A DNA stretch of 64,000 nt from the NCBI GenBank assembly GCA_964522435.1, contig CAZFUL010000002.1, positions 44,631-108,630 on the forward strand. Direction: 5' to 3'. This document shows positions 1,787 to 48,163 of this stretch, piece after piece (positions within the stretch are counted from its first letter, which is position 1; each line of letters starts with the position of its first letter). The position numbers and the translations under genes were made by a program. The stretch is from an uncultured Gammaproteobacteria bacterium. GTDB taxonomy: Bacteria; Patescibacteriota; Patescibacteriia; Magasanikbacterales; UBA922. A model generated the notes under the pieces. It had not been told where the DNA came from. It made no database searches and saw only the letters and a list, made by a program, of their open reading frames with translations.

Positions 1787-2699
1787 GAAGGATCGCTTCT
1801 ACATTATAGTTGATAAGATCAATATACGTTTCTGTTTCTTTTGATCCACCTAAGGGATCAAGCACGCCAATCGTAATATTATAATCATCTGCAAAGCGGG
1901 TAAGCACGCTAGAGGAGAGTTGTGGCTCACGATACACGCGGGTAACGTTGTGTTCTTCTATAATACTCTGTAACTCTTGCAAATATTGTGCGGTTGGTTC
2001 TTTTCCTGCAAATGGTTCCACTGTTGCTACAACGTTGATATTAAAATGATCAGCAAAGTAGGCAAAGGCGTTATGAAAGGTGATGATATTTTTATCCTCA
2101 AGCGTAGCAAGTTGTTCAGTCCAGATAGCGTCTTGTTCTTGTATACGTTGTTTTAATGCACTTGCCCGTTCACTATAAAGCGTTGCGTTATCCGGATCAT
2201 TTCCTGCAATATAGTTACTCATCGTATCAATAATGATAATCATGTTATTTGGATCAAGCCAGTAATGCGGGTCATAGGCTCCTGTTTCTTCTTCATGATG
2301 AGTTGCGTTATGGTCTTCCTCATGGTCATCATGATGGGTATATTCTTTAAGAGGAATACGTAGGTCGACCGTAATTTTTTGTGCGCTATCAATTTGTGGC
2401 ATGATAGCATCAACCCAGTTATCTAGCTCTTGTCCTATAGCAAATATAATATCAGCGCCTTGTGCTTTTTTAATTGTCGTACTTTTTGGCTCATACAAGT
2501 GTTCGCTTACCCCTGCAGGTAATAAAAGGACAACGTCTGTTTCATTTCCTGCAATAGTTTTTGCGACATCATAAAGGGGGTAAATAGTTGTTGCTACTTT
2601 TGGTTTTTGGGCGATAGGGCCACGGGGTTGTTGTATGATGGCATAATAGATTCCTGTGACGATGAGTACAATAATAAGTAAGGGGAGGTATTTTTTCAT
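1776..2699 (-). CDS. znuA: Periplasmic metal-binding lipoprotein, ZnuA/TroA-like, with His-rich loop
   Basis: Start trimmed to MKKYLPLLIIVLIV, a signal/lipobox-like N-terminus. The longer ORF overlaps the upstream MFS gene. His/Asp/Glu-rich loop HHDDHEEDHNATHHEEE is typical of Zn-binding ZnuA. Confidence 0.7.
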   Translation of the reverse strand: MKKYLPLLIIVLIVTGIYYAIIQQPRGPIAQKPKVATTIYPLYDVAKTIAGNETDVVLLLPAGVSEHLYEPKSTTIKKAQGADIIFAIGQELDNWVDAIMPQIDSAQKITVDLRIPLKEYTHHDDHEEDHNATHHEEETGAYDPHYWLDPNNMIIIIDTMSNYIAGNDPDNATLYSERASALKQRIQEQDAIWTEQLATLEDKNIITFHNAFAYFADHFNINVVATVEPFAGKEPTAQYLQELQSIIEEHNVTRVYREPQLSSSVLTRFADDYNITIGVLDPLGGSKETETYIDLINYNVEAILQKK

Positions 2700-2766
2700 A
2701 GAATAAAAAGATGTAATATATAAAGGGTAAGAGTATTGTAGTGCAACACGGTTGCATTTGTCAAGC

Positions 2767-3984
2767 CTATGTATTGGGGGAGGCAATTTGAGCTCCTTTA
2801 GGCATGCGGAAAAAAACAATCGTAATAATACACAGCAAGGAAGCAAGCATATACGGGTAGAGCATACTTTTTGTAATAAGGAGTGCCGCAATAAGCATAA
2901 TAGGAACTTCAAGGATACTTTTACATATATTAGTTAACGATAAACTCGTTGCTCTATTAAACGATTTCATTTTTTTATTAAGGTATGTGCTATACAGCGG
3001 GTTGCGTGTATTTTCTAGCATGGCAAAAAAAATAAAACAGCTGTAGAGAATATAGGGATTGGGTAATAACCATGCAAAGAGTAAAAAAAATACGGTCATG
3101 AGGGTTGTCATAGCGGTCATTCTATTGATTGTTTTTTCTAATGGTAACGAAATACGGGGAAGAATGTATCGAGAAATAATGTATGATCCTAATTGCATAA
3201 GTGACCAACCTATGCCAATAGCTAAGAGAGATATTCCCAGACTGCTGTAATACACTTGGGAATATTGCCACACCATAAGAGAGGCAATAAAAGGGAGCAG
3301 ACGATTAATAATTGCGTAGAGTATCTCATGATCTTTTTTTATGAGAATAACGGCATCATGAAGAATACCAGCGTTTTGTTCTTCGATATCGTGAGTATGT
3401 TGTGGTTCCGTAAGACGGAGGCTAAATATTGCTGCAATAAGGGTGAAACATATATCGAGAACAATGATGAGTTGAAATTGCCATTCTAATAAATCTTTTG
3501 CTAAAAGAACAGCGATGATAGGGGTGATAATTTTAAAAAATCGTTTAGCAGAATAATAATGAGATAAATGTTTTAATCCATGAGAACCGTCTTCGCCTAA
3601 TTCTTTGGCACTATCATAGAGCAATGCCTCATCTGTTCCAGACATCATCGCAACGTTAATACCATATAAGGCTGCCCCAATAGCAAAGATGATAAAAGAA
3701 TCAGCAAAAAAATAGAATACCCAATACAATAGGCCTAAGATAACTCCCAACATGATTGTTTTTTTTCTTCCCCAACGATCGGCGAGATAGCTCGAGGGTA
3801 CTTCGGTGAGTGTATTTGCAATAGCCCAAATTATTCCTAGGTATAGTATCTCAGATAACGAAAGTCCTCTGTGGAGATAAAATAATGAAGAAATTGCACC
3901 AAATAACCGGGCATTCATACATGCTTGGATCCAAAAGGTATAGGAGACATTCTTGCGTAACCCCTGAGCGCGTACGGCATCCAT
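2767..3984 (-). CDS. MFS transporter
   Basis: 405 aa, 12-TM-like hydrophobicity. MFS motif region LADRWGRKKTIMLG. Confidence 0.65.
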   Translation of the reverse strand: MDAVRAQGLRKNVSYTFWIQACMNARLFGAISSLFYLHRGLSLSEILYLGIIWAIANTLTEVPSSYLADRWGRKKTIMLGVILGLLYWVFYFFADSFIIFAIGAALYGINVAMMSGTDEALLYDSAKELGEDGSHGLKHLSHYYSAKRFFKIITPIIAVLLAKDLLEWQFQLIIVLDICFTLIAAIFSLRLTEPQHTHDIEEQNAGILHDAVILIKKDHEILYAIINRLLPFIASLMVWQYSQVYYSSLGISLLAIGIGWSLMQLGSYIISRYILPRISLPLEKTINRMTAMTTLMTVFFLLFAWLLPNPYILYSCFIFFAMLENTRNPLYSTYLNKKMKSFNRATSLSLTNICKSILEVPIMLIAALLITKSMLYPYMLASLLCIITIVFFRMPKGAQIASPNT

Positions 3985-10594: not shown

Positions 10595-10610
10595 GAATCA
10601 AGTATAATAA

Positions 10611-10707
10611 TCCCTTTACAGCATACAAGGACGAAAGCAACTCGCATAGGGTGCCAGATGCACCCTATGCTGCGACTGCTTTTTTTGCCTGTATGCTGTA
10701 GCGGGAT
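10611..10707. repeat. 97-nt long-hairpin repeat element, copy A
   Basis: Imperfect long hairpin with inner stem GCATAGGGTGC-CAGAT-GCACCCTATGC. A 95%-identical copy lies at 27406-27503. Confidence 0.7.
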
Positions 10708-10734
10708 ATCATATAGCAGTATGATTAAGCCCCC

Positions 10735-26436: not shown

Positions 26437-26516
26437 TTCTCCAGTATTTTTTTGTAAAAAAATGCACTGGGGATGGCACGCAACGGGGTGGGATGTGGTT
26501 GTTGCGTGGTTTCTCC

Positions 26517-27257
26517 TTAGTTGGCGGCGTCAACCCCAGGGTCATCAGCCTCAGCCGCTCGATAATCGGGTGGTGGGTGGCAGACGACGTCCCCTTCTTG
26601 CAAGGGGTAGGGGCCGCCCTCTGCTGCCCCTTCAAACAGGGGCTGATTGAGGCTGTTGTTCCGCAACATCGCGGTGTAGTTGAGGCCGTACACCGCCGCA
26701 TAGCGGCCGAGGGTATCGGGGTCCTCTTCCTTGACGATCCCGTAGAGAAGAGATCCACAGCGCCTTGCGTCTTTGCGCTCGTTGTTGCTGGGTTGCGGCT
26801 TCTCTTCCTCTGGTTCAACGAGCGCTCCGGTCTTTTCATCATAATCTTTGGGGACAAAGTGTCCCAAGACGTCACCCGCTGGGTCGGCGAGCCCGGCGTT
26901 CAGACGCAGGAGCGTGTGTTCGTCTGAATTGTGGTAGATAATAAAACCGGTTGCCACGAAGAGCAAGGATGCTCCGACCTGCCACTTCCAGGGGAGCCGA
27001 GGGAATGTGCCGAGGTACACGATTGCTGCATGTACCGTCACCCCCAGAAAGATGATCCCGCTGAGCATTGGGAAGAAATTCTGGGCGCCAAACACCGCCG
27101 ACCAGGCAGTGCAGAAGATGAGCGTCATCGTTCCCCTGAGGAAGTTCTTCTGGGCTTTGGTAAACGGAGCTGTTTTCTTCAGGGGAGGAGGTTCTTCTTC
27201 GGGAAACTCCTGAGGGGGAGGTTCAGTGGAATCTGCTGGAGTGTATTTTTCTGTCAT
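26517..27257 (-). CDS. Compositionally foreign membrane protein: Pro/Glu-rich N-terminus, three TM helices, C-terminal soluble domain
   Basis: Coding GC about 58-60% against a background of about 40%. Codon bias CTC/CCC/GGG/AGG. Own promoter and a GAAGGAG ribosome-binding site. No family recognised. Confidence 0.55.
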   Translation of the reverse strand: MTEKYTPADSTEPPPQEFPEEEPPPLKKTAPFTKAQKNFLRGTMTLIFCTAWSAVFGAQNFFPMLSGIIFLGVTVHAAIVYLGTFPRLPWKWQVGASLLFVATGFIIYHNSDEHTLLRLNAGLADPAGDVLGHFVPKDYDEKTGALVEPEEEKPQPSNNERKDARRCGSLLYGIVKEEDPDTLGRYAAVYGLNYTAMLRNNSLNQPLFEGAAEGGPYPLQEGDVVCHPPPDYRAAEADDPGVDAAN

Positions 27258-27354
27258 GATGTTTCTCCTTCGGCGCTGAGGGGGGCGCCGAGATCTGTTG
27301 TGTATAGATCATATCCCTCTGTTTACCTCCAGTTAGAGAGAAATACGATGTTCG

Positions 27355-27383
27355 ACCCTAGCGCAGATTGGGGTTTTTGTCAA
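27355..27383 (-). promoter_or_regulatory. sigma70-like promoter for the foreign ORF at 26517-27257, TTGACA-N17-TAGGGT
   Basis: Read on the minus strand. A 5'UTR palindrome TCGGCGC-TGAGGGG-GCGCCGA at 27270-27291 lies between the promoter and the ribosome-binding site. Confidence 0.45.
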
Positions 27384-27405
27384 GCTAGGGGGGATATCCT
27401 AACGA

Positions 27406-27503
27406 TCCCTTTTCAGCATACAAGCACGAAAGCAACTCGCGTAGGGTGCCAGATGCACCCTACGCTGCGACTGCTTTCTTTGCCTGTATGCTGTAGCGGG
27501 ATA
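27406..27503. repeat. 97-nt long-hairpin repeat element, copy B
   Basis: 95% identical to 10611-10707. The inner stem GCGTAGGGTGC-CAGAT-GCACCCTACGC keeps its pairing through compensatory changes. Confidence 0.7.
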
Positions 27504-34597: not shown

Positions 34598-35176
34598 ATG
34601 CCCCTCACAAAACAAATAAAAACTATTCTCTTGTTTAACGTTATCTATATCACCCTGTTTGGTGCATTCGCTGTGTATCGAGAAAATTGGGAATTTTTAT
34701 TTTATGTGTCGATTGTTGGGTTTTTCTTTTTTCTCCTGCTTAAAAAACATCAAACACTTGGCTTAACACCAGGGGTGTTGTGGGGGCTTTCTGTCTGGGG
34801 GCTTATTCATATGATGGGGGGAAATATCCCGGTGAATGGCAGTGTGTTGTATAATGTGCAACTTATTCCGATATTTTTAAAATATGATCAACTGGTGCAT
34901 GCCTTTGGATTTGGTGTGACAACCGTTGTTGGCTGGCAGCTTATTCGACCGTATTTGAAAGAAACATATAATCGGGTAACAATTGGTATTTTGATTGTGA
35001 TGATTGGTATGGGAGCCGGTGCCTTGAACGAAACACTAGAATTTATTGCAACCGTTATTGTTCCAGAAACAAATGTTGGGGGATATCTCAATACTTCACT
35101 TGACCTTATTTTTAATATGCTTGGGGCAAGTATTGCGGCGGTGTATATTATGAGTCGGGAGAAAAAAAGAATGTAA
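34598..35176 (+). CDS. Hypothetical membrane protein
   Basis: 192 aa with 5-6 predicted TM helices. Confidence 0.45.
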   Translation: MPLTKQIKTILLFNVIYITLFGAFAVYRENWEFLFYVSIVGFFFFLLLKKHQTLGLTPGVLWGLSVWGLIHMMGGNIPVNGSVLYNVQLIPIFLKYDQLVHAFGFGVTTVVGWQLIRPYLKETYNRVTIGILIVMIGMGAGALNETLEFIATVIVPETNVGGYLNTSLDLIFNMLGASIAAVYIMSREKKRM

Positions 35177-35268
35177 ATACTGTCAGGTATACAACGCCAA
35201 GCCATCATTATATAAACGCAGTCTTAACCAGGCTGCTTTTTATATATCCCAAAGGCAACCCTCCATGA

Positions 35269-35297
35269 TTGACTTTTTTCTTTGCTTATGATAGATA
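35269..35297 (+). promoter_or_regulatory. sigma70-like promoter for the foreign ORF at 35344, TTGACT-N17-TAGATA
   Basis: Followed by the 5'UTR palindrome CCGGAA-G-TTCCGG at 35313-35325 and an AAGGAGGG ribosome-binding site at 35331-35338. Confidence 0.45.
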
Positions 35298-35343
35298 AGC
35301 TGCACAACTGAACCGGAAGTTCCGGAACGTAAGGAGGGATAGC

Positions 35344-35898
35344 ATGTCAATTAGCTTTGGATTGCGTCGTTTTCTGCAGCAGCTCCGCTACGATGAGCTC
35401 CGGCTGTTCCAACAGTTCACACAGATGGCTGGTACGGGAGATCGCCTGTGTCTGAAAGATATTCCACCGGAGAAGGGAGAAGCGGTGAGCGCCTTCTTTG
35501 CACTGTTGGTGGAACAGGATATCCTCACCCTCGTGAGCGAACAAGGGGCACATGGGAATATCTGGCGTCTCAACCGGCGTTTGTATGACCAGCTGCTTCC
35601 TGCCAGCTACCAGACCCCCAAGGGGATTGTGCTGCTGGTGGCACAGGAATTCCAGCAGCCTGTGGCACATATTTTGGGTCATGAACACCGCAAACCTGCT
35701 GTGTTTGCCACGAAAGTGGTTGCCTGGCTCATGTACAACAATGGCCGGGGCACGACCTCCCAAGCTGATATCGGTAAGGAGCTGAACCGGGCCCAGTCAA
35801 CCGTATGCACCGATATCATCTTCATTGGGCAGGCAATGCTCGAAGATCCGGCGTTCAACGCTCGGGTGATGCGGTTATACGCCCGCATCTACGGCTGA
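35344..35898 (+). CDS. Compositionally foreign putative DNA-binding protein: N-terminal winged-helix-like segment and C-terminal HTH
   Basis: Coding GC about 55% with CTG/GGC/CGC codon bias. C-terminal HTH-like segment TTSQADIGKELNRAQSTVCTDI. Strong ribosome-binding site. Confidence 0.55.
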   Translation: MSISFGLRRFLQQLRYDELRLFQQFTQMAGTGDRLCLKDIPPEKGEAVSAFFALLVEQDILTLVSEQGAHGNIWRLNRRLYDQLLPASYQTPKGIVLLVAQEFQQPVAHILGHEHRKPAVFATKVVAWLMYNNGRGTTSQADIGKELNRAQSTVCTDIIFIGQAMLEDPAFNARVMRLYARIYG

Positions 35899-36035
35899 TT
35901 TTCCCACCTGAAACGAGAGAATCCCACCTTTCAGGGCGGCAATTCTCGTTTCCCAAGACGATGCCACCCAATCTCTGTATATACTCGTATGTATGTAGAG
36001 ATTGGAGAACAACGGCATCGTTTTGTGAAAAAATA

Positions 36036-36068
36036 AAACCCCGACACATGTGTCAGGGTTTTTTAATC
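36036..36068. terminator. Bidirectional rho-independent terminator
   Basis: AAAATAAAA-CCCCGACACATGTGTCAGGG-TTTTTT. Confidence 0.6.
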
Positions 36069-36084
36069 TCTCATGGTTGTTTTC

Positions 36085-36642
36085 TTATGGAACCACGTTA
36101 ATTTCTAAGGCATTAAATTGTTGTGTTCCGGTTTGTTCGCAAGATAAGTAAATTGTTTGTGGTGGATTCTTGACGCTAATGGTAAATGGTTGCGCATCGT
36201 AGCCGTCCAAGATAATTGATTTTGTTCCAATCGTAATTTTTTGTGGGTCTGCAGAGAATCCATCTAATAACACTGTCGTGCCATTTTTTACCAGCATTTT
36301 GTTGGTAGGAATGGTTTTACAATGTTCTATTTGGATACGCCAATCTCCGTAGGTCGCTAATGCTTTTTGATAGGTATCTGGATTTGCTTTTAAATGTTTT
36401 CCTGAAACAACTGGCGCGGCATTGTTGCCTCCGGTTGCTGGGGCGTCTTCATTTTTCTTTGGAAGAGTCATGGTGTTGTCACGTTCCACTGCGGTGCCTT
36501 CTGCAAAAGGAGAGGTGGAATTGCCATCAACAGTCATTGTCTCTTTTTTTGCATTGGTAATAAGAATACTCACAATGAATACCAATACAATAATACCGGC
36601 AATGATCAACTGTTCACGATACTTGGTAATGATGTCATTCAT
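36085..36642 (-). CDS. Hypothetical N-terminally anchored secreted protein
   Basis: Single N-terminal TM helix, then a Thr/Gly/Asn-rich beta-type domain. 185 aa. Confidence 0.45.
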   Translation of the reverse strand: MNDIITKYREQLIIAGIIVLVFIVSILITNAKKETMTVDGNSTSPFAEGTAVERDNTMTLPKKNEDAPATGGNNAAPVVSGKHLKANPDTYQKALATYGDWRIQIEHCKTIPTNKMLVKNGTTVLLDGFSADPQKITIGTKSIILDGYDAQPFTISVKNPPQTIYLSCEQTGTQQFNALEINVVP

Positions 36643-38398: not shown

Positions 38399-38469
38399 TC
38401 GGGGATCGTCTAACGGTAGGACTCTAGGTTTTGGTCCTAGTTATCGGGGTTCGAATCCCTGTCCCCGAG
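38399..38469 (+). tRNA. tRNA-Gln (anticodon UUG)
   Basis: TCGGGGATCGTCTAACGGTAGGACTCTAGGTTTTGGTCCTAG...GGGGTTCGAATCCCTGTCCCCGAG. Anticodon loop TTTTGGT. Confidence 0.7.
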
Positions 38470-38576
38470 CAAAATATAAATACACCCATATGGGTGTATT
38501 TATATTTATGATAGTGAAAGGGATTCGAAGGGCGCGAGAGCCCCGACTAAATGTCGGGGCGGTGCGCAGCGCCCCG

Positions 38577-38593
38577 GTACCCGAACGGAGTGA
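38577..38593 (+). repeat. 17-nt direct repeat of the tRNA-Gln 3' end, AATCCCTGTCCCCGAGC
   Basis: Exact copy of 38453-38469, about 110 nt downstream of the tRNA. The intervening segment is GC-rich and carries hairpins. Confidence 0.6.
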
Positions 38594-38605
38594 GGGGGAA
38601 TCCCT

Positions 38606-38634
38606 GTCCCCGAGCTAAAACAAAAAGCGGCCAA
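38606..38634 (+). terminator. Rho-independent terminator
   Basis: AAAAAGCGGCC-AACA-GGCCGCTTTTTG. Confidence 0.7.
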
Positions 38635-38727
38635 CAGGCCGCTTTTTGTTTATATACATTTGACACATTTTCTCAGCGGGTGTAATATCCCCTATAGGGG
38701 GATATATAATAAATTATTTTTATTTCT

Positions 38728-42604: not shown

Positions 42605-42713
42605 TCCTGTTTTCATTTTTATGACAACGAAGATTGATACAAATGAAAATGGGCTGGGGGAGAGTCCAGCTCTCCCACCCTCCTATTTTTTTGTGCAGTG
42701 GCTAATCCTGCGG

Positions 42714-43133
42714 CTAGCGGCGGCGCGTGAGTCCGAATTTGAAGAACTCCCACAGAATCGCGCCAAACACGTCATTGTGGATCTGGTGGATCTGCCGGCA
42801 TTCGCCAATCAGTCGCGGATGCGTGATGCTCTCGAAGCCCCGGGGCATCAAGAAGTCATCATCGGCGATGCCCGCCACGATGGCCGCGTCGAAGATGTCG
42901 GTGAACGCCGCTTCTTCCTGGTCGGAAGAAAGCCCCTGAAACAGCCGCTCCCAGGCCGTGAGCGCCTTGGCGCTGCTCCGTGAAAACACCCACGTCCAGA
43001 AGGTTGGTCTCGGCAGCGCGACCCAGCCCGCATCTGTCTTTGCTTGAGTGCTGATTGGAGGTCGCTGTTTCGGGAAGGTGCTGAAGTATTTCACCCTGTC
43101 CCCGTGGTTGATACCTGTGATCAGGAAGATCAT
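42714..43133 (-). CDS. Compositionally foreign small soluble protein (140 aa), unknown function
   Basis: Coding GC about 58%, CTG/GCC/CGC bias. Start MIFLITGINHGDR, preceded by CCAAGGAG. The upstream GTG-extended ORF was trimmed. No family recognised. Confidence 0.5.
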   Translation of the reverse strand: MIFLITGINHGDRVKYFSTFPKQRPPISTQAKTDAGWVALPRPTFWTWVFSRSSAKALTAWERLFQGLSSDQEEAAFTDIFDAAIVAGIADDDFLMPRGFESITHPRLIGECRQIHQIHNDVFGAILWEFFKFGLTRRR

Positions 43134-43174
43134 GCGTTGCTCCTTGGTGGATATGGCAGTATTGCCATGACCGC

Positions 43175-43203
43175 AGTACACAAAAAAAACGAGCTTTTGT
43201 CAA
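43175..43203 (-). promoter_or_regulatory. sigma70-like promoter for the foreign ORF at 43133-42714, TTGACA-N17-TGTACT
   Basis: Read on the minus strand. 5'UTR palindrome ATGGCA-GTAT-TGCCAT at 43153-43168. Immediately upstream is an array of CAATTAACA / TGTTAATTG repeats at 43205-43290. Confidence 0.4.
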
Positions 43204-43280
43204 GCCGAGCAATTAACATTTAACAATTAGCAATTAACAAATTTGTTTATTAATTATGTATCCTAAATCAACATCGTTTG

Positions 43281-45717: not shown

Positions 45718-46059
45718 TTATGAGGCTCTATCGGCTGATTCATCAGCGAGCGGGGGTGATGGTTTAACCAATTTTTTACTTGGAGAGTATAGTTTATTGT
45801 TAATATTCCATTTACTGACATATTGTCCTATACCGCTTTTATTGGTTTTGTTTCGAACAGTGGTTTTTTCTTGAGACCATTTGACCAGACTTTCAAAATG
45901 AATTTTATAGCGGCCAGCAACGACAATATAAATAACTTCTTCTTGTTTAATGGCGCGGCGAATCGTTTGTTGGCTTACGCCAAATAAGCGTGCTGCCTCT
46001 GAAATAGAGACACGGATCATTTCTTTTTGAGAATCATTGGATAAAGAGGCGTGATTCAT
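45718..46059 (-). CDS. HTH DNA-binding protein (excisionase/MerR-like HTH), candidate local regulator
   Basis: VSISEAARLFGVSQQTIRRAIKQEEV helix-turn-helix. Start trimmed to MNHASL, because the upstream extension is encoded by the operator palindrome. Confidence 0.5.
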   Translation of the reverse strand: MNHASLSNDSQKEMIRVSISEAARLFGVSQQTIRRAIKQEEVIYIVVAGRYKIHFESLVKWSQEKTTVRNKTNKSGIGQYVSKWNINNKLYSPSKKLVKPSPPLADESADRAS

Positions 46060-46064
46060 AGAAA

Positions 46065-46090
46065 GTTTGTATATACTAGCGTATACAAAC
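46065..46090. promoter_or_regulatory. Operator-like perfect palindrome GTTTGTATA-N8-TATACAAAC
   Basis: A 9-bp perfect inverted repeat. A second site at 46141-46168 has the same half-sites, TTTTTGTATA-N8-TATACAAAAA. Confidence 0.5.
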
Positions 46091-46140
46091 ATATCATAGT
46101 ATCGAGTGTTTGTCAAGCAGTTTTTATGAGCGGTATGTAG

Positions 46141-46168
46141 TTTTTGTATAGACTAGTGTATACAAAAA
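46141..46168. promoter_or_regulatory. Second operator-like palindrome, TTTTTGTATA-N8-TATACAAAAA
   Basis: Same TTGTATA/TATACAA half-sites as 46065-46090, about 50 bp away. Lies between the HTH gene and the ECF sigma gene. Confidence 0.5.
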
Positions 46169-46352
46169 TGTCATTTCACCCGAGTACACGAATAGACTTG
46201 ATGGCTGTTTTCCTTCCGTGATGTACGCAGCAACGAACAAAAAATATGGTATAGTAGCCCTCGTAACCTTGATTATTTCGCTGTTTTCTGCTAAGATTTA
46301 CGCGATTTGGCGCAGACGTATCTTTATTGAATATCGTGAGATTGATTAAAGT

Positions 46353-46378
46353 GTAACATTTTTCTTAAATCCCCGTCT
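46353..46378 (+). promoter_or_regulatory. ECF-sigma-type promoter, TGTAAC-N15-CGTC, directly upstream of the ECF sigma gene
   Basis: Matches the Bacillus sigX/sigM/sigW-type -35 (T)GAAC/GTAAC and -10 CGTC. The position implies autoregulation and a very short leader. Confidence 0.4.
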
Positions 46379-46384
46379 TCTTAT

Positions 46385-46939
46385 ATGAAGAGCCTCAACA
46401 CCATAATTCAAGAAAAAACATTGTTGTACAGGATTAGTGTTCATAAAGACGCAGATGCCTATGCAACAATGTATGATGTGTATGTTGAGAAAATATATCG
46501 CTTTGTGTTTTTTAAAGTAAATAATACCCAAGAAGCAGAAGATATAACCAGTGATGTGTTTTTAAAAGTCTGGCAATATCTTATTTCTGAAAAAGGAAAA
46601 TCTGTATCGCATTTAAGCGGATTATTATATAGAACCGCAAGAAATTGTATTATTGATACCTACCGAGAACGAGCCAAAAAGCCAACAACCTCGCTCGATC
46701 AAGCCGAACAACTCCCTGATGAATCTCACAAACATGACATTCATATAAAAGAAGAGTATCGGCAGCTCCTTGCATCACTTACCTCATTAAAACAAGAATA
46801 TCAAGATGTGCTCTTACTCAGATATGTGGAAGAAATGAGCATGTCAGAAATCTGTCGTATTTTAGAAAAAAAACCATCCGCGGTGCGCGTATTATTGCAT
46901 AGAGCCACAAAAAAATTGCAAGAACTCCACCATATATAA
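46385..46939 (+). CDS. RNA polymerase ECF-type sigma factor (sigma-70 regions 2 and 4)
   Basis: Region 2: YATMYDVYVEKIYRFVFFKV ... DVFLKVW. Region 4: LLLRYVEEMSMSEICRILEKKPSAVRVLLHRA. Confidence 0.8.
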   Translation: MKSLNTIIQEKTLLYRISVHKDADAYATMYDVYVEKIYRFVFFKVNNTQEAEDITSDVFLKVWQYLISEKGKSVSHLSGLLYRTARNCIIDTYRERAKKPTTSLDQAEQLPDESHKHDIHIKEEYRQLLASLTSLKQEYQDVLLLRYVEEMSMSEICRILEKKPSAVRVLLHRATKKLQELHHI

Positions 46940-46942
46940 TAT

Positions 46943-48163
46943 ATGAACAAACGATTGCGTGAACAATTAAGATCGTTAAAGCAAGAACATGCTTCTTTGC
47001 GCCCATCACAAAACTGGGTTGTTTCGCATAAAGAACGGTTGCTCACGCAAATTAAAAATACCGTGACCGAAGAACAACAGGTGCCTGTGTTAGTTCGTGT
47101 ACAGCATGTGGTGAGTAGCATGTTTTCTACCCAGCGTGTGCTTGCGTTTCGAGGAGCGTTTGCTGTGGTATTAGTGGTTGGATTAGCAACCAGTGGTTTA
47201 GTTGCGAGTGCAAGTCCATTACCACGAGACCTGTTATTTAATGTAAAAGTGGCAATGGTGACCGTAACCGGAAATGCAAAAGCAAAAGGCAAATTACATC
47301 TCGACGAAGCAAATTATCAAGCACAAGAGTTACAACGAAAAGTTGCTACGGGATCATCTGAACAAAAAGACGTTGAAAAACAATTGAAAAAAATTAAAAA
47401 GCAAGTAGATTCTGCAAAAAAAACATTAGATAATGCACAAGAAGCAGATAGAACGGTGTTAGCAAAAGATTTAACGAAAGAAACCACGACCATTGCACAA
47501 TCATTAAAAGAAGTAACCGATGGTGCTGCGACAACAGACGCGACGGTAAAAGAAGTAACCGCGGTCCGACAAGATGTATTGTTAGCAGGGATTGATGGGT
47601 TGGTCGTATTAGGAGAACTCATTGATCAGCCAACGGATAGTTTAGGAGCACAAGAAGTCACAGAAATTCAACAAGTAGTAGAAGAAAAAATTGTGGTTAT
47701 TTTAGAAGAAGCCGAAGCAATAAAACAACAAGTGATTGAAGATACAAAAGTGATTGTTTCTGAACAACAATCCACAACCACCCTGCAAGCGGTGATAGGA
47801 TCAACAACACCAGCAATGAGTGATACCACAGCCTCTTCAACCAGTAATAACGTATCGTCTACCCCTGTATCTGTACAGCAACAAGTAGAAAAAGATATAC
47901 AAACATTAAGTGAAAGTGCGCAAAAAACAGATACGGCGGTTACACAGGTAAAAGAATTACTCGGAGAAAATCAAGTAGGAAAAGCCGTGGAAGCGGTGAA
48001 ACAATTACAAACGATTGCCCAAGAAACAGAAGCGGTATTAATTAATGTACGAGAAGTGATTAAAACCAATACTGAACCATCAACCACTGCCACGCTGCCT
48101 GCCGCAACAACTACGGTAATATCACCAACCACGACCCTGCCTGCGCCAGCAACAACATTATAA
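46943..48163 (+). CDS. Putative anti-sigma factor / DUF5667-like single-pass membrane protein with an extracytoplasmic coiled-coil
   Basis: Immediately follows the ECF sigma gene. One TM helix (AVVLVVGLATSGLVA). Long Glu/Lys/Thr/Val-rich coiled-coil. Confidence 0.5.
   Translation: MNKRLREQLRSLKQEHASLRPSQNWVVSHKERLLTQIKNTVTEEQQVPVLVRVQHVVSSMFSTQRVLAFRGAFAVVLVVGLATSGLVASASPLPRDLLFNVKVAMVTVTGNAKAKGKLHLDEANYQAQELQRKVATGSSEQKDVEKQLKKIKKQVDSAKKTLDNAQEADRTVLAKDLTKETTTIAQSLKEVTDGAATTDATVKEVTAVRQDVLLAGIDGLVVLGELIDQPTDSLGAQEVTEIQQVVEEKIVVILEEAEAIKQQVIEDTKVIVSEQQSTTTLQAVIGSTTPAMSDTTASSTSNNVSSTPVSVQQQVEKDIQTLSESAQKTDTAVTQVKELLGENQVGKAVEAVKQLQTIAQETEAVLINVREVIKTNTEPSTTATLPAATTTVISPTTTLPAPATTL

Follow-up and report, generated by a model that had tools for sequence, protein, structure and literature searches.

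The window analysed here is a 64-kb stretch of a Patescibacteria (Candidate Phyla Radiation, CPR) chromosome with about 40.5% GC. It contains three islands of 55-62% GC, located at 26.4-27.4 kb (cassette A), 35.25-36.03 kb (cassette B) and 42.65-43.2 kb (cassette C), and the subject of this report is cassette B together with the protein that it encodes. As shown in Table 1, cassette B is an island of about 790 bp (about 35247-36034) between convergent host genes, and it is filled by one open reading frame (ORF) that starts 6 nt past a Shine-Dalgarno sequence. An earlier note on this DNA had described the ORF as a gene for a protein of 184 amino acids. This was borne out, and the peptide quoted in the note corresponds to residues 137-162.

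The cassette B gene is foreign. Its GC content is 55%, with 0.62, 0.39 and 0.64 at the first, second and third codon positions, compared with 0.53, 0.37 and 0.31 in host genes and a window mean of 40.5%. GC climbs from 0.38 to 0.54 immediately past the intrinsic terminator that marks the left edge of the island. The earlier note had given the same GC content and had called the codons E. coli-like. CTG is indeed the top Leu codon, but the preference claimed for GGC and CGC was not found: Gly codons are used nearly evenly (0.23-0.31) and Arg favours CGG. When the DNA of cassette B was compared by blastn with 5,426 E. coli genomes and with the plasmid and phage collections, nothing matched.

Table 1. 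Features of cassette B, its flanks and the two other foreign cassettes (positions are those of the window).
Feature	Position	Strand	Details
Upstream host gene	34598..35176	+	membrane protein, DUF2238 match
Intrinsic terminator of the DUF2238 gene, left edge of island	35218..35246	+	terminator scan; 7-bp stem and T-run
Putative promoter	35269..35297	+	-35 TTGACT 35269-35274, 17-nt spacer, -10-like TAGATA 35292-35297; read by eye
Overlapping palindromes, candidate operator	35313..35328	.	CCGGAAgTTCCGG 35313-35325; GTTCCGGAAC 35319-35328, perfect 10-bp palindrome
Shine-Dalgarno AAGGAGG	35331..35337	+	6 nt ahead of ATG
Cassette B ORF	35344..35898	+	184 amino acids, singleton protein P0001; from ORF list
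N-terminal half, no recognisable family	35344..35607	+	residues 1-88
C-terminal DnaA-domain-IV-like DNA-binding domain	35608..35886	+	residues 89-181; profile and fold matches
Helix-turn-helix core TSQADIGKELNRAQSTV	35755-35805	+	residues 138-154
Two direct copies of TCCCACCT	35902-35909, 35922-35929	+	starts 20 nt apart
Hairpin 1	35910..35952	+	10-bp stem; -17.4 kcal/mol, z -3.5
Hairpin 2	35954..36025	+	long two-tier stem, AT-rich apical part
AT-rich bidirectional intrinsic terminator, right edge of island	36035..36062	both	terminator scan and folds on both strands
Convergent downstream host gene	36085..36642	-	shares terminator with cassette B
Cassette A	26440-27400; ORF 26517..27257	-	246 amino acids, 57% GC
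Cassette C	42606-43210; ORF 42717..43133	-	139 amino acids (155 from upstream GTG), GC3 0.77
TTGACA -35-like elements, cassettes A / C	27378-27383 / 43198-43203	-	followed by weak -10-like hexamers; promoter not called by scanner
TCCCACC sites	26487-26493 (-), 35902-35908 (+), 35922-35928 (+), 42673-42679 (+)		cassettes A, B, B and C, respectively

The protein is a singleton. When 5.8 billion protein clusters were searched by word index, it matched only itself at E<=10, and a complete HMMER pass over 1.84 billion representatives likewise gave the self-match only. No relative was found in the GTDB species genomes, IMG/VR or the JGI metagenome contigs, by sequence search of the PDB, or by tblastn against plasmid records. 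tblastn against 50,697 phage records gave nothing but one match at E=8, and the PHROG search gave no match. A search for defence systems (PADLOC) returned only PDC-S19 at E 0.04, and membership was rejected. An internal duplication of the two protein halves was also considered and rejected: a 27-nt repeat is present (35498/35627), yet BLASTP between the halves was empty.

Judged from profile matches and structure models, the C-terminal half of the protein is a helix-turn-helix (HTH) domain of the DnaA domain IV type. The best Pfam match was Bac_DnaA_C (PF08299), aligned to residues 95-156 over model positions 4-64 of 69 (61/69 positions), with 21.9 bits and E 1.8e-4 for the full-length protein and 24.0 bits and E 3.9e-5 for the C-terminal half alone. 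Three NCBIfam DnaA models aligned with their extreme C-termini to residues 89-181, at scores under the curated cut-offs. For TIGR00362 (21.3 bits compared with a cut-off of 343.9), model positions 345-436 of 437 fell on residues 89-181 of 184, so that the match ends at the C-terminus as in DnaA. A second and weaker Pfam match was HTH_38 at residues 138-154 (E 0.1-0.23). The earlier note had also seen an HTH in this half and had likened it to sigma region 4 or a LuxR-type fold. The HTH was confirmed, but its type was not, as no match to Sigma70_r4, Sigma70_r4_2 or GerE was obtained even at E<=10. As a positive control for the sigma profiles, the extracytoplasmic function (ECF) sigma factor of the window (46385..46936) matched Sigma70_r4_2 at 4.6e-13.

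Structure was predicted with AlphaFold2 from the single sequence. The full-length model, with a predicted local distance difference test (pLDDT) score of 43.7, was too poor and was left out of the fold search. The model of residues 91-184 contained six helices (pLDDT 68.6, predicted template modelling score 0.56). When it was compared with 350,542 PDB chains using Foldseek, the top match was the DNA-binding domain of M. tuberculosis DnaA (3pvp_A; probability 0.84, template modelling (TM) score 0.45), the second was the DNA-binding domain of E. coli DnaA (1j1v_A), and DnaA of A. aeolicus was found lower down. Among viral structures (BFVD), 10 of the 13 top matches were proteins of 97-205 amino acids annotated as 'Chromosomal replication initiator, DnaA C-terminal' from uncultured tailed phages, and the best match had a probability of 0.95. 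Taken singly, these model-based fold matches are not significant (E 0.1-0.8), and their weight comes from the agreement with the profile matches.

Like DnaA domain IV (1J1V, 3PVP), the C-terminal domain of the cassette B protein, as modelled, has the same helix order and the HTH at the same position, and the profile match spans nearly the whole domain. Unlike it, the protein scores under the Pfam gathering threshold and has no domains I-III. A full-length DnaA was rejected as its identity, since the protein has 184 amino acids without an AAA+ domain or domains I-III and scored 21 against the equivalog cut-off of 344. HTVC010P-type pelagiphages are described as carrying stand-alone PF08299 genes in their early/replication region, and a part in the replication of the phage or in controlling it has been proposed for such genes (PMC8477408). 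The cassette B protein resembles such stand-alone phage proteins in size (184 compared with 97-205 amino acids), in having the DnaA-IV-type HTH as its sole recognisable domain and in lacking AAA+, and they are its best fold neighbours. It differs in having no sequence relative among them (tblastn of the 50,697 phage records, IMG/VR, PHROGs), in its location in a bacterial chromosome without phage neighbours and in an extra, unassignable N-terminal half of about 90 residues. The cassette B protein is a very divergent addition to the small stand-alone DnaA-C-terminal-domain proteins.

In E. coli DnaA, the residues in contact with the DnaA box are R399, D433, H434, T435 and H439. When the cassette B protein was aligned by hand with the E. 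coli DnaA sequence, RDHTTVLH corresponded to RAQSTVCT, with the Asp and His replaced and Ser/Thr-Thr-Val retained; BLASTP against the E. coli sequence gave no alignment. This manual alignment suggests that the DnaA-box contacts made by Asp and His are lost, so the target of the protein is probably something other than a DnaA box. DnaA-box-like sites occur in the window at chance level, with one at the edge of the island.

The N-terminal half belongs to no recognisable family. Residues 1-92 had no Pfam or PHROG match at E<=10, and in the full-length model this part had pLDDT 32-50 and no strands. The winged helix that had been proposed for the N-terminus found no support in Pfam, in PHROGs or in the low-confidence model, and the second HTH implied by the description 'double HTH' is not supported, the N-terminal 92 residues matching nothing.

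Upstream of the ORF, TTGACT is a good -35 element, while TAGATA matches the -10 consensus at 3/6 positions and a better hexamer, TATGAT, is only 12 nt from the -35. Two overlapping palindromes, CCGGAAgTTCCGG and GTTCCGGAAC, follow, the latter standing 3 nt upstream of the Shine-Dalgarno sequence. By exact-match search each occurs once in the window. The palindrome that the earlier note had reported upstream of the ribosome binding site (RBS) was found as an exact match, but to place it between a -10 and the RBS presupposes a -10 that is only putative. Perfect 10-bp palindromes number 72 in the window compared with 76 +/- 10 in shuffles. The leader fold has a z-score of -0.98, and an RNA switch formed by the leader palindrome was rejected.

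Beyond the stop codon the DNA is highly structured, as had been noticed before. Region 35896-36075 folded with a minimum free energy of -63.6 kcal/mol, at z -6.55 on the plus strand and z -6.95 on the minus strand relative to shuffles. For hairpin 2, the fold of 35949-36030 gave -36.1 kcal/mol (z -7.6) on the plus strand and -31.5 kcal/mol (z -5.3) on the minus strand, and its G-U pairs favour folding of the sense strand. No second copy of the hairpins was found in the window or in related loci. A known RNA family was rejected, as Rfam gave only generic hairpin (miRNA) matches far under gathering. An attC site of an integron cassette was rejected by inspection, the R'' (RYYYAAC) and R' (GTTRRRY) motifs being absent from hairpins 1 and 2 on either strand; the ends of the hairpin arms read AAGACGA...TCGTTTT, and the cassettes are dispersed, not arrayed as in integrons. 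TCCCACCT has exactly two copies in the 64 kb, the second in the loop region of hairpin 1. It is 7/8 complementary to AGGAGGGA, and the fold of the full mRNA pairs the Shine-Dalgarno sequence with copy 1 at P 0.97. An anti-Shine-Dalgarno role of the 3' untranslated region (UTR) was nevertheless rejected, because 20% of shuffled 3' UTRs pair likewise and the duplex energy lies at the 22nd percentile.

We favour, with moderate confidence, the reading that cassette B carries a phage-derived, moron-like and possibly self-regulated DNA-binding gene. It would have been acquired horizontally, most likely from a phage or another mobile element, and would have lodged in a harmless gap between convergent host genes. 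A moron is defined as an obvious addition with deviant GC and its own expression signals (PMC3594210), and the build of cassette B appears to be of this kind, with a single gene of foreign composition, its own -35 element, a strong RBS and a terminator at the end. Like phage morons of the HK97 gp15 type, it is one gene added between resident genes, with deviant GC, a promoter-like element and a terminator. It differs from them in that the recipient is a bacterial chromosome and not a prophage, the promoter is putative and the terminator is probably the bidirectional one of the host. The product would be an orphan protein of two parts, whose C-terminal 95 residues or so would form a DnaA-domain-IV-type HTH of the kind that many tailed phages encode stand-alone.

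Given an HTH of the DnaA-IV type, sequence-specific binding of double-stranded DNA is predicted, and the protein should recognise its duplex through this HTH. The likeliest immediate target would be GTTCCGGAAC, which alone among the candidate sites is suitably placed and symmetrical. A dimer bound there would repress transcription of its own gene, a negative autoregulation that we infer on statistically weak grounds. Initiators of iteron plasmids (RepA/RepE type) bind as dimers to an inverted repeat in their own promoter and as monomers to direct repeats in the origin. Like these initiators and other autorepressing HTH regulators, cassette B has an inverted repeat in the leader and direct repeats beside the gene; unlike in RepA/RepE systems, the half-site of its palindrome (GTTCC) differs from TCCCACCT, there are two repeats only, and no Rep family was matched.

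Several observations weigh against the favoured reading. No homologue was found at E<=10 in the 5.8 billion clusters, and the sequence could be decaying or could never have been functional. There is no PHROG match and no phage gene nearby, the phage origin being deduced from fold neighbours only. All matches of the DnaA type are sub-threshold (21.9-24 bits for PF08299 compared with a gathering score of 31.5). The Foldseek matches have E 0.12-0.8 and TM 0.41-0.50 on a model of medium confidence, and Foldseek also draws on amino-acid information, which makes it not fully independent of the hidden Markov model matches. In the leader, a scanner for consensus sigma-70-type promoters made no call upstream of the ORF, and 8.8% of shuffled 98-nt leaders hold a 10-bp palindrome, so that GTTCCGGAAC is statistically unremarkable. 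The foreign composition, the intact ORF, the singleton status, the DnaA-IV-like HTH and the structured 3' flank are observed, and promoter activity, dimeric binding at the palindrome, autorepression and the origin from a phage are predictions from sequence and model.

Cassette B could alternatively be the remnant of a phage or plasmid replication module, in which the DnaA-IV-type protein binds both copies of TCCCACCT and the long hairpin, AT-rich at its tip, supplies the unwinding or structural element of an origin. The phage genes for stand-alone DnaA DNA-binding domains do sit in replication modules, with a proposed role in initiation (PMC8477408), the two repeats in the window lie 20 bp apart (about two helical turns) right past the stop codon, and both strands of the flank fold strongly. 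We consider this unlikely. Iteron origins normally have three or more repeats that are longer than 8 nt, DnaA-box-like sites do not exceed chance, no helicase, primase or partition gene and no Rep family was matched, and an active extra origin in the chromosome would be deleterious. The G-U wobbles of hairpin 2, which favour the plus-strand RNA (-36.1 vs -31.5 kcal/mol), suggest an element of the 3' UTR rather than a DNA cruciform. It is similarly improbable that the gene is a non-functional passenger, i.e. a decaying foreign scrap with an open frame, or the artefact of a mis-assembled metagenome contig. The window seems to come from a 185-kb contig of an uncultured organism, no promoter was called, and a protein with no homologues at all offers no evidence of purifying selection. 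Against this, with a stop-codon frequency of about 0.038, a frame open over 184 codons at 55% GC has an estimated chance of <1e-3 per frame, a perfect Shine-Dalgarno sequence and a terminator bound the ORF exactly, with a recognisable domain inside, and three complete cassettes, each exactly between convergent host terminators, would be hard to obtain by chimeric assembly.

DnaA_C-like and HTH_23/28/38-type HTH domains serve as DNA-binding modules of transposases, and the protein might be a truncated or domesticated fragment of the mobile element that carried the DNA in. To this we assign a low probability. The HTH_38 match is in its favour, as are the C-terminal extension resembling Bac_DnaA_C, and related to HTH_23/HTH_28, in subclass 2.1 of the Y1 HuH TnpA_REP/TIRYT proteins and the hairpin-rich flanks typical of single-strand transposons (bioRxiv 10.1101/279083). 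The cassette B protein shares with these TnpA_REP (TIRYT) extensions a weakly DnaA_C-like class of HTH used outside replication and the association with hairpin-forming DNA (bioRxiv 10.1101/279083), but it has no HuH/Y1 catalytic domain or any other, no transposase family was matched, and it showed no REP-like repeats of its own. The window contains the element once, and its candidates for terminal inverted repeats or target duplications are unconvincing, the best being a pair of 20 nt with 70% complementarity (35249-35268 / 36071-36090). The suggestion of the earlier note, that cassette B encodes a common regulator of the imported cassettes A, B and C, fared worse still and appears to us barely tenable. 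Each of the three cassettes has a GC-rich gene that is a singleton or matches no family, preceded by a TTGAC(A/T) element and a palindrome in the leader, and all three have TCCCACC in their 3' non-coding parts (the chance of any common 7-mer among three shuffled regions is 0.017). However, GTTCCGGAAC is found nowhere else in the window, its frequency fits chance, and its sole match with one mismatch is within the coding region of cassette A. Cross-regulation through the palindrome was rejected, as the pattern and its half-sites are absent from the leaders of A and C and the density of palindromes equals that of shuffles. The three leader palindromes are unrelated to each other, the cassettes lie 8-9 kb apart with housekeeping genes between and no common sequence, and the 7-mer of cassette C runs antisense to its gene.

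The cassettes A, B and C are alike in that each is located between convergent host genes, inside a pair of host terminators. The proteins of A and C match no Pfam, NCBIfam, PHROG or PADLOC family, and the other reading frames of all three islands had no Pfam or other family match. The cassette A protein is a singleton among the 5.8 billion protein clusters; it has a Pro/Glu-rich N-terminus and, by eye, hydrophobic segments and a LysM-like C-terminal stretch. Cassette C has TTGACA upstream and ATGGCAATACTGCCAT as leader palindrome. That the leader palindromes of the two other cassettes differ from that of B, as had been stated before, was confirmed. TCCCACC has five sites in the window, four of which belong to the 3' non-coding DNA of A, B (two) and C, and the 8-mer ATCCCACC, present in A and B, lies in both in the loop of the first hairpin past the stop codon. 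In cassette C, motif and gene are on opposite strands. Cassette B is tied to A and C only by foreign composition and this short motif. GC-rich islands number three in this 64-kb window, compared with 14 across related CPR loci that total 1.9 Mb. In the related locus L003 the site of cassette A is empty, the ferredoxin and ClpB genes being about 50 bp apart from stop to stop compared with 1.2 kb here. The most unusual aspect is collective, namely three GC-rich, promoter-first cassettes without homologues between convergent CPR genes. One could imagine a single undescribed route of gene import into CPR chromosomes, in which promoter-first units enter between the terminators of convergent genes with TCCCACC in a hairpin-rich 3' end, and in which the DnaA-IV-type protein of B would be the DNA-binding component of the system or a domesticated modulator of host replication; we regard this as very unlikely.

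Beside cassette A, other repeats and insertions were observed. A near-perfect palindromic hairpin of about 100 nt, with ATCCC...GGGAT ends, is present at 10605-10708 and 27400-27503 with 93-95% identity. The two copies show a compensatory change from G-C to A-T in the stem, and a TTGACA -35-like element lies 17-25 nt beyond both. One copy adjoins tRNA-Glu, and the other directly borders cassette A on its promoter side. The hairpin was rejected as part of a common cassette architecture, since the second copy identifies it as a host repeat. In L003, a different GC-rich island (2201-3300, up to 69.5% GC) lies directly upstream of the ferredoxin gene that flanks the site of cassette A; its ORF (2267..3160, 297 amino acids) was judged by eye to be purine nucleoside phosphorylase-like. 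The neighbourhood of the cassette A site seems prone to foreign insertions.

The surroundings of cassette B are those of a CPR chromosome. GltX of the window has at best 60% identity to any species representative, and the nearest genomes are CPR metagenome-assembled genomes, some of them mislabelled. The housekeeping neighbours include ferredoxin, ClpB, a WecG-type glycosyltransferase, SpoU methylase, GltX, tRNA-Thr, the DUF378 and DUF2238 membrane proteins, FtsE/FtsX, tRNA-Gln, a CsoR-type repressor, a copper P-type ATPase, an HMA chaperone, GreA and TsaD. No integrase or phage gene was found near cassette B among about 30 window ORFs scanned. For cassette B there was no empty site to compare, as none of 160 related loci has homologues of its flanking genes. 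The last 22 nt of tRNA-Gln (38453-38474) recur at 38598-38619 with 95% identity, beyond a GC-rich insert of 123 bp, and a terminator follows; a 40-nt inverted repeat begins in the 3' end of the same tRNA gene (38450-38489 / 38490-38529). From the sequence, this region (38399-38640) resembles the scar that an integrated element leaves at an att-like site or, alternatively, a tRNA that was duplicated in part. Farther away, 45721-48160 encodes an HTH_17 protein (45721..46116, minus strand), the ECF-type sigma factor, which also has 184 amino acids, and a family-less protein of 406 amino acids (46943..48160) that is possibly the anti-sigma partner of the adjoining sigma factor.

To our knowledge, none of the stand-alone DnaA DNA-binding domains has been characterised. 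Cassette B is a curiosity and opens no long-standing question. If the reading as a phage-derived, moron-like gene is right, a streamlined CPR bacterium would retain an intact and apparently expressible phage-type gene for a DnaA-domain DNA-binding protein, which stands without a relative in some 15 billion public proteins and lies near two equally orphan imports. It would then be a small, concrete case bearing on the origin of orphan genes in ultra-small bacteria and on the role of stand-alone DnaA DNA-binding domains.

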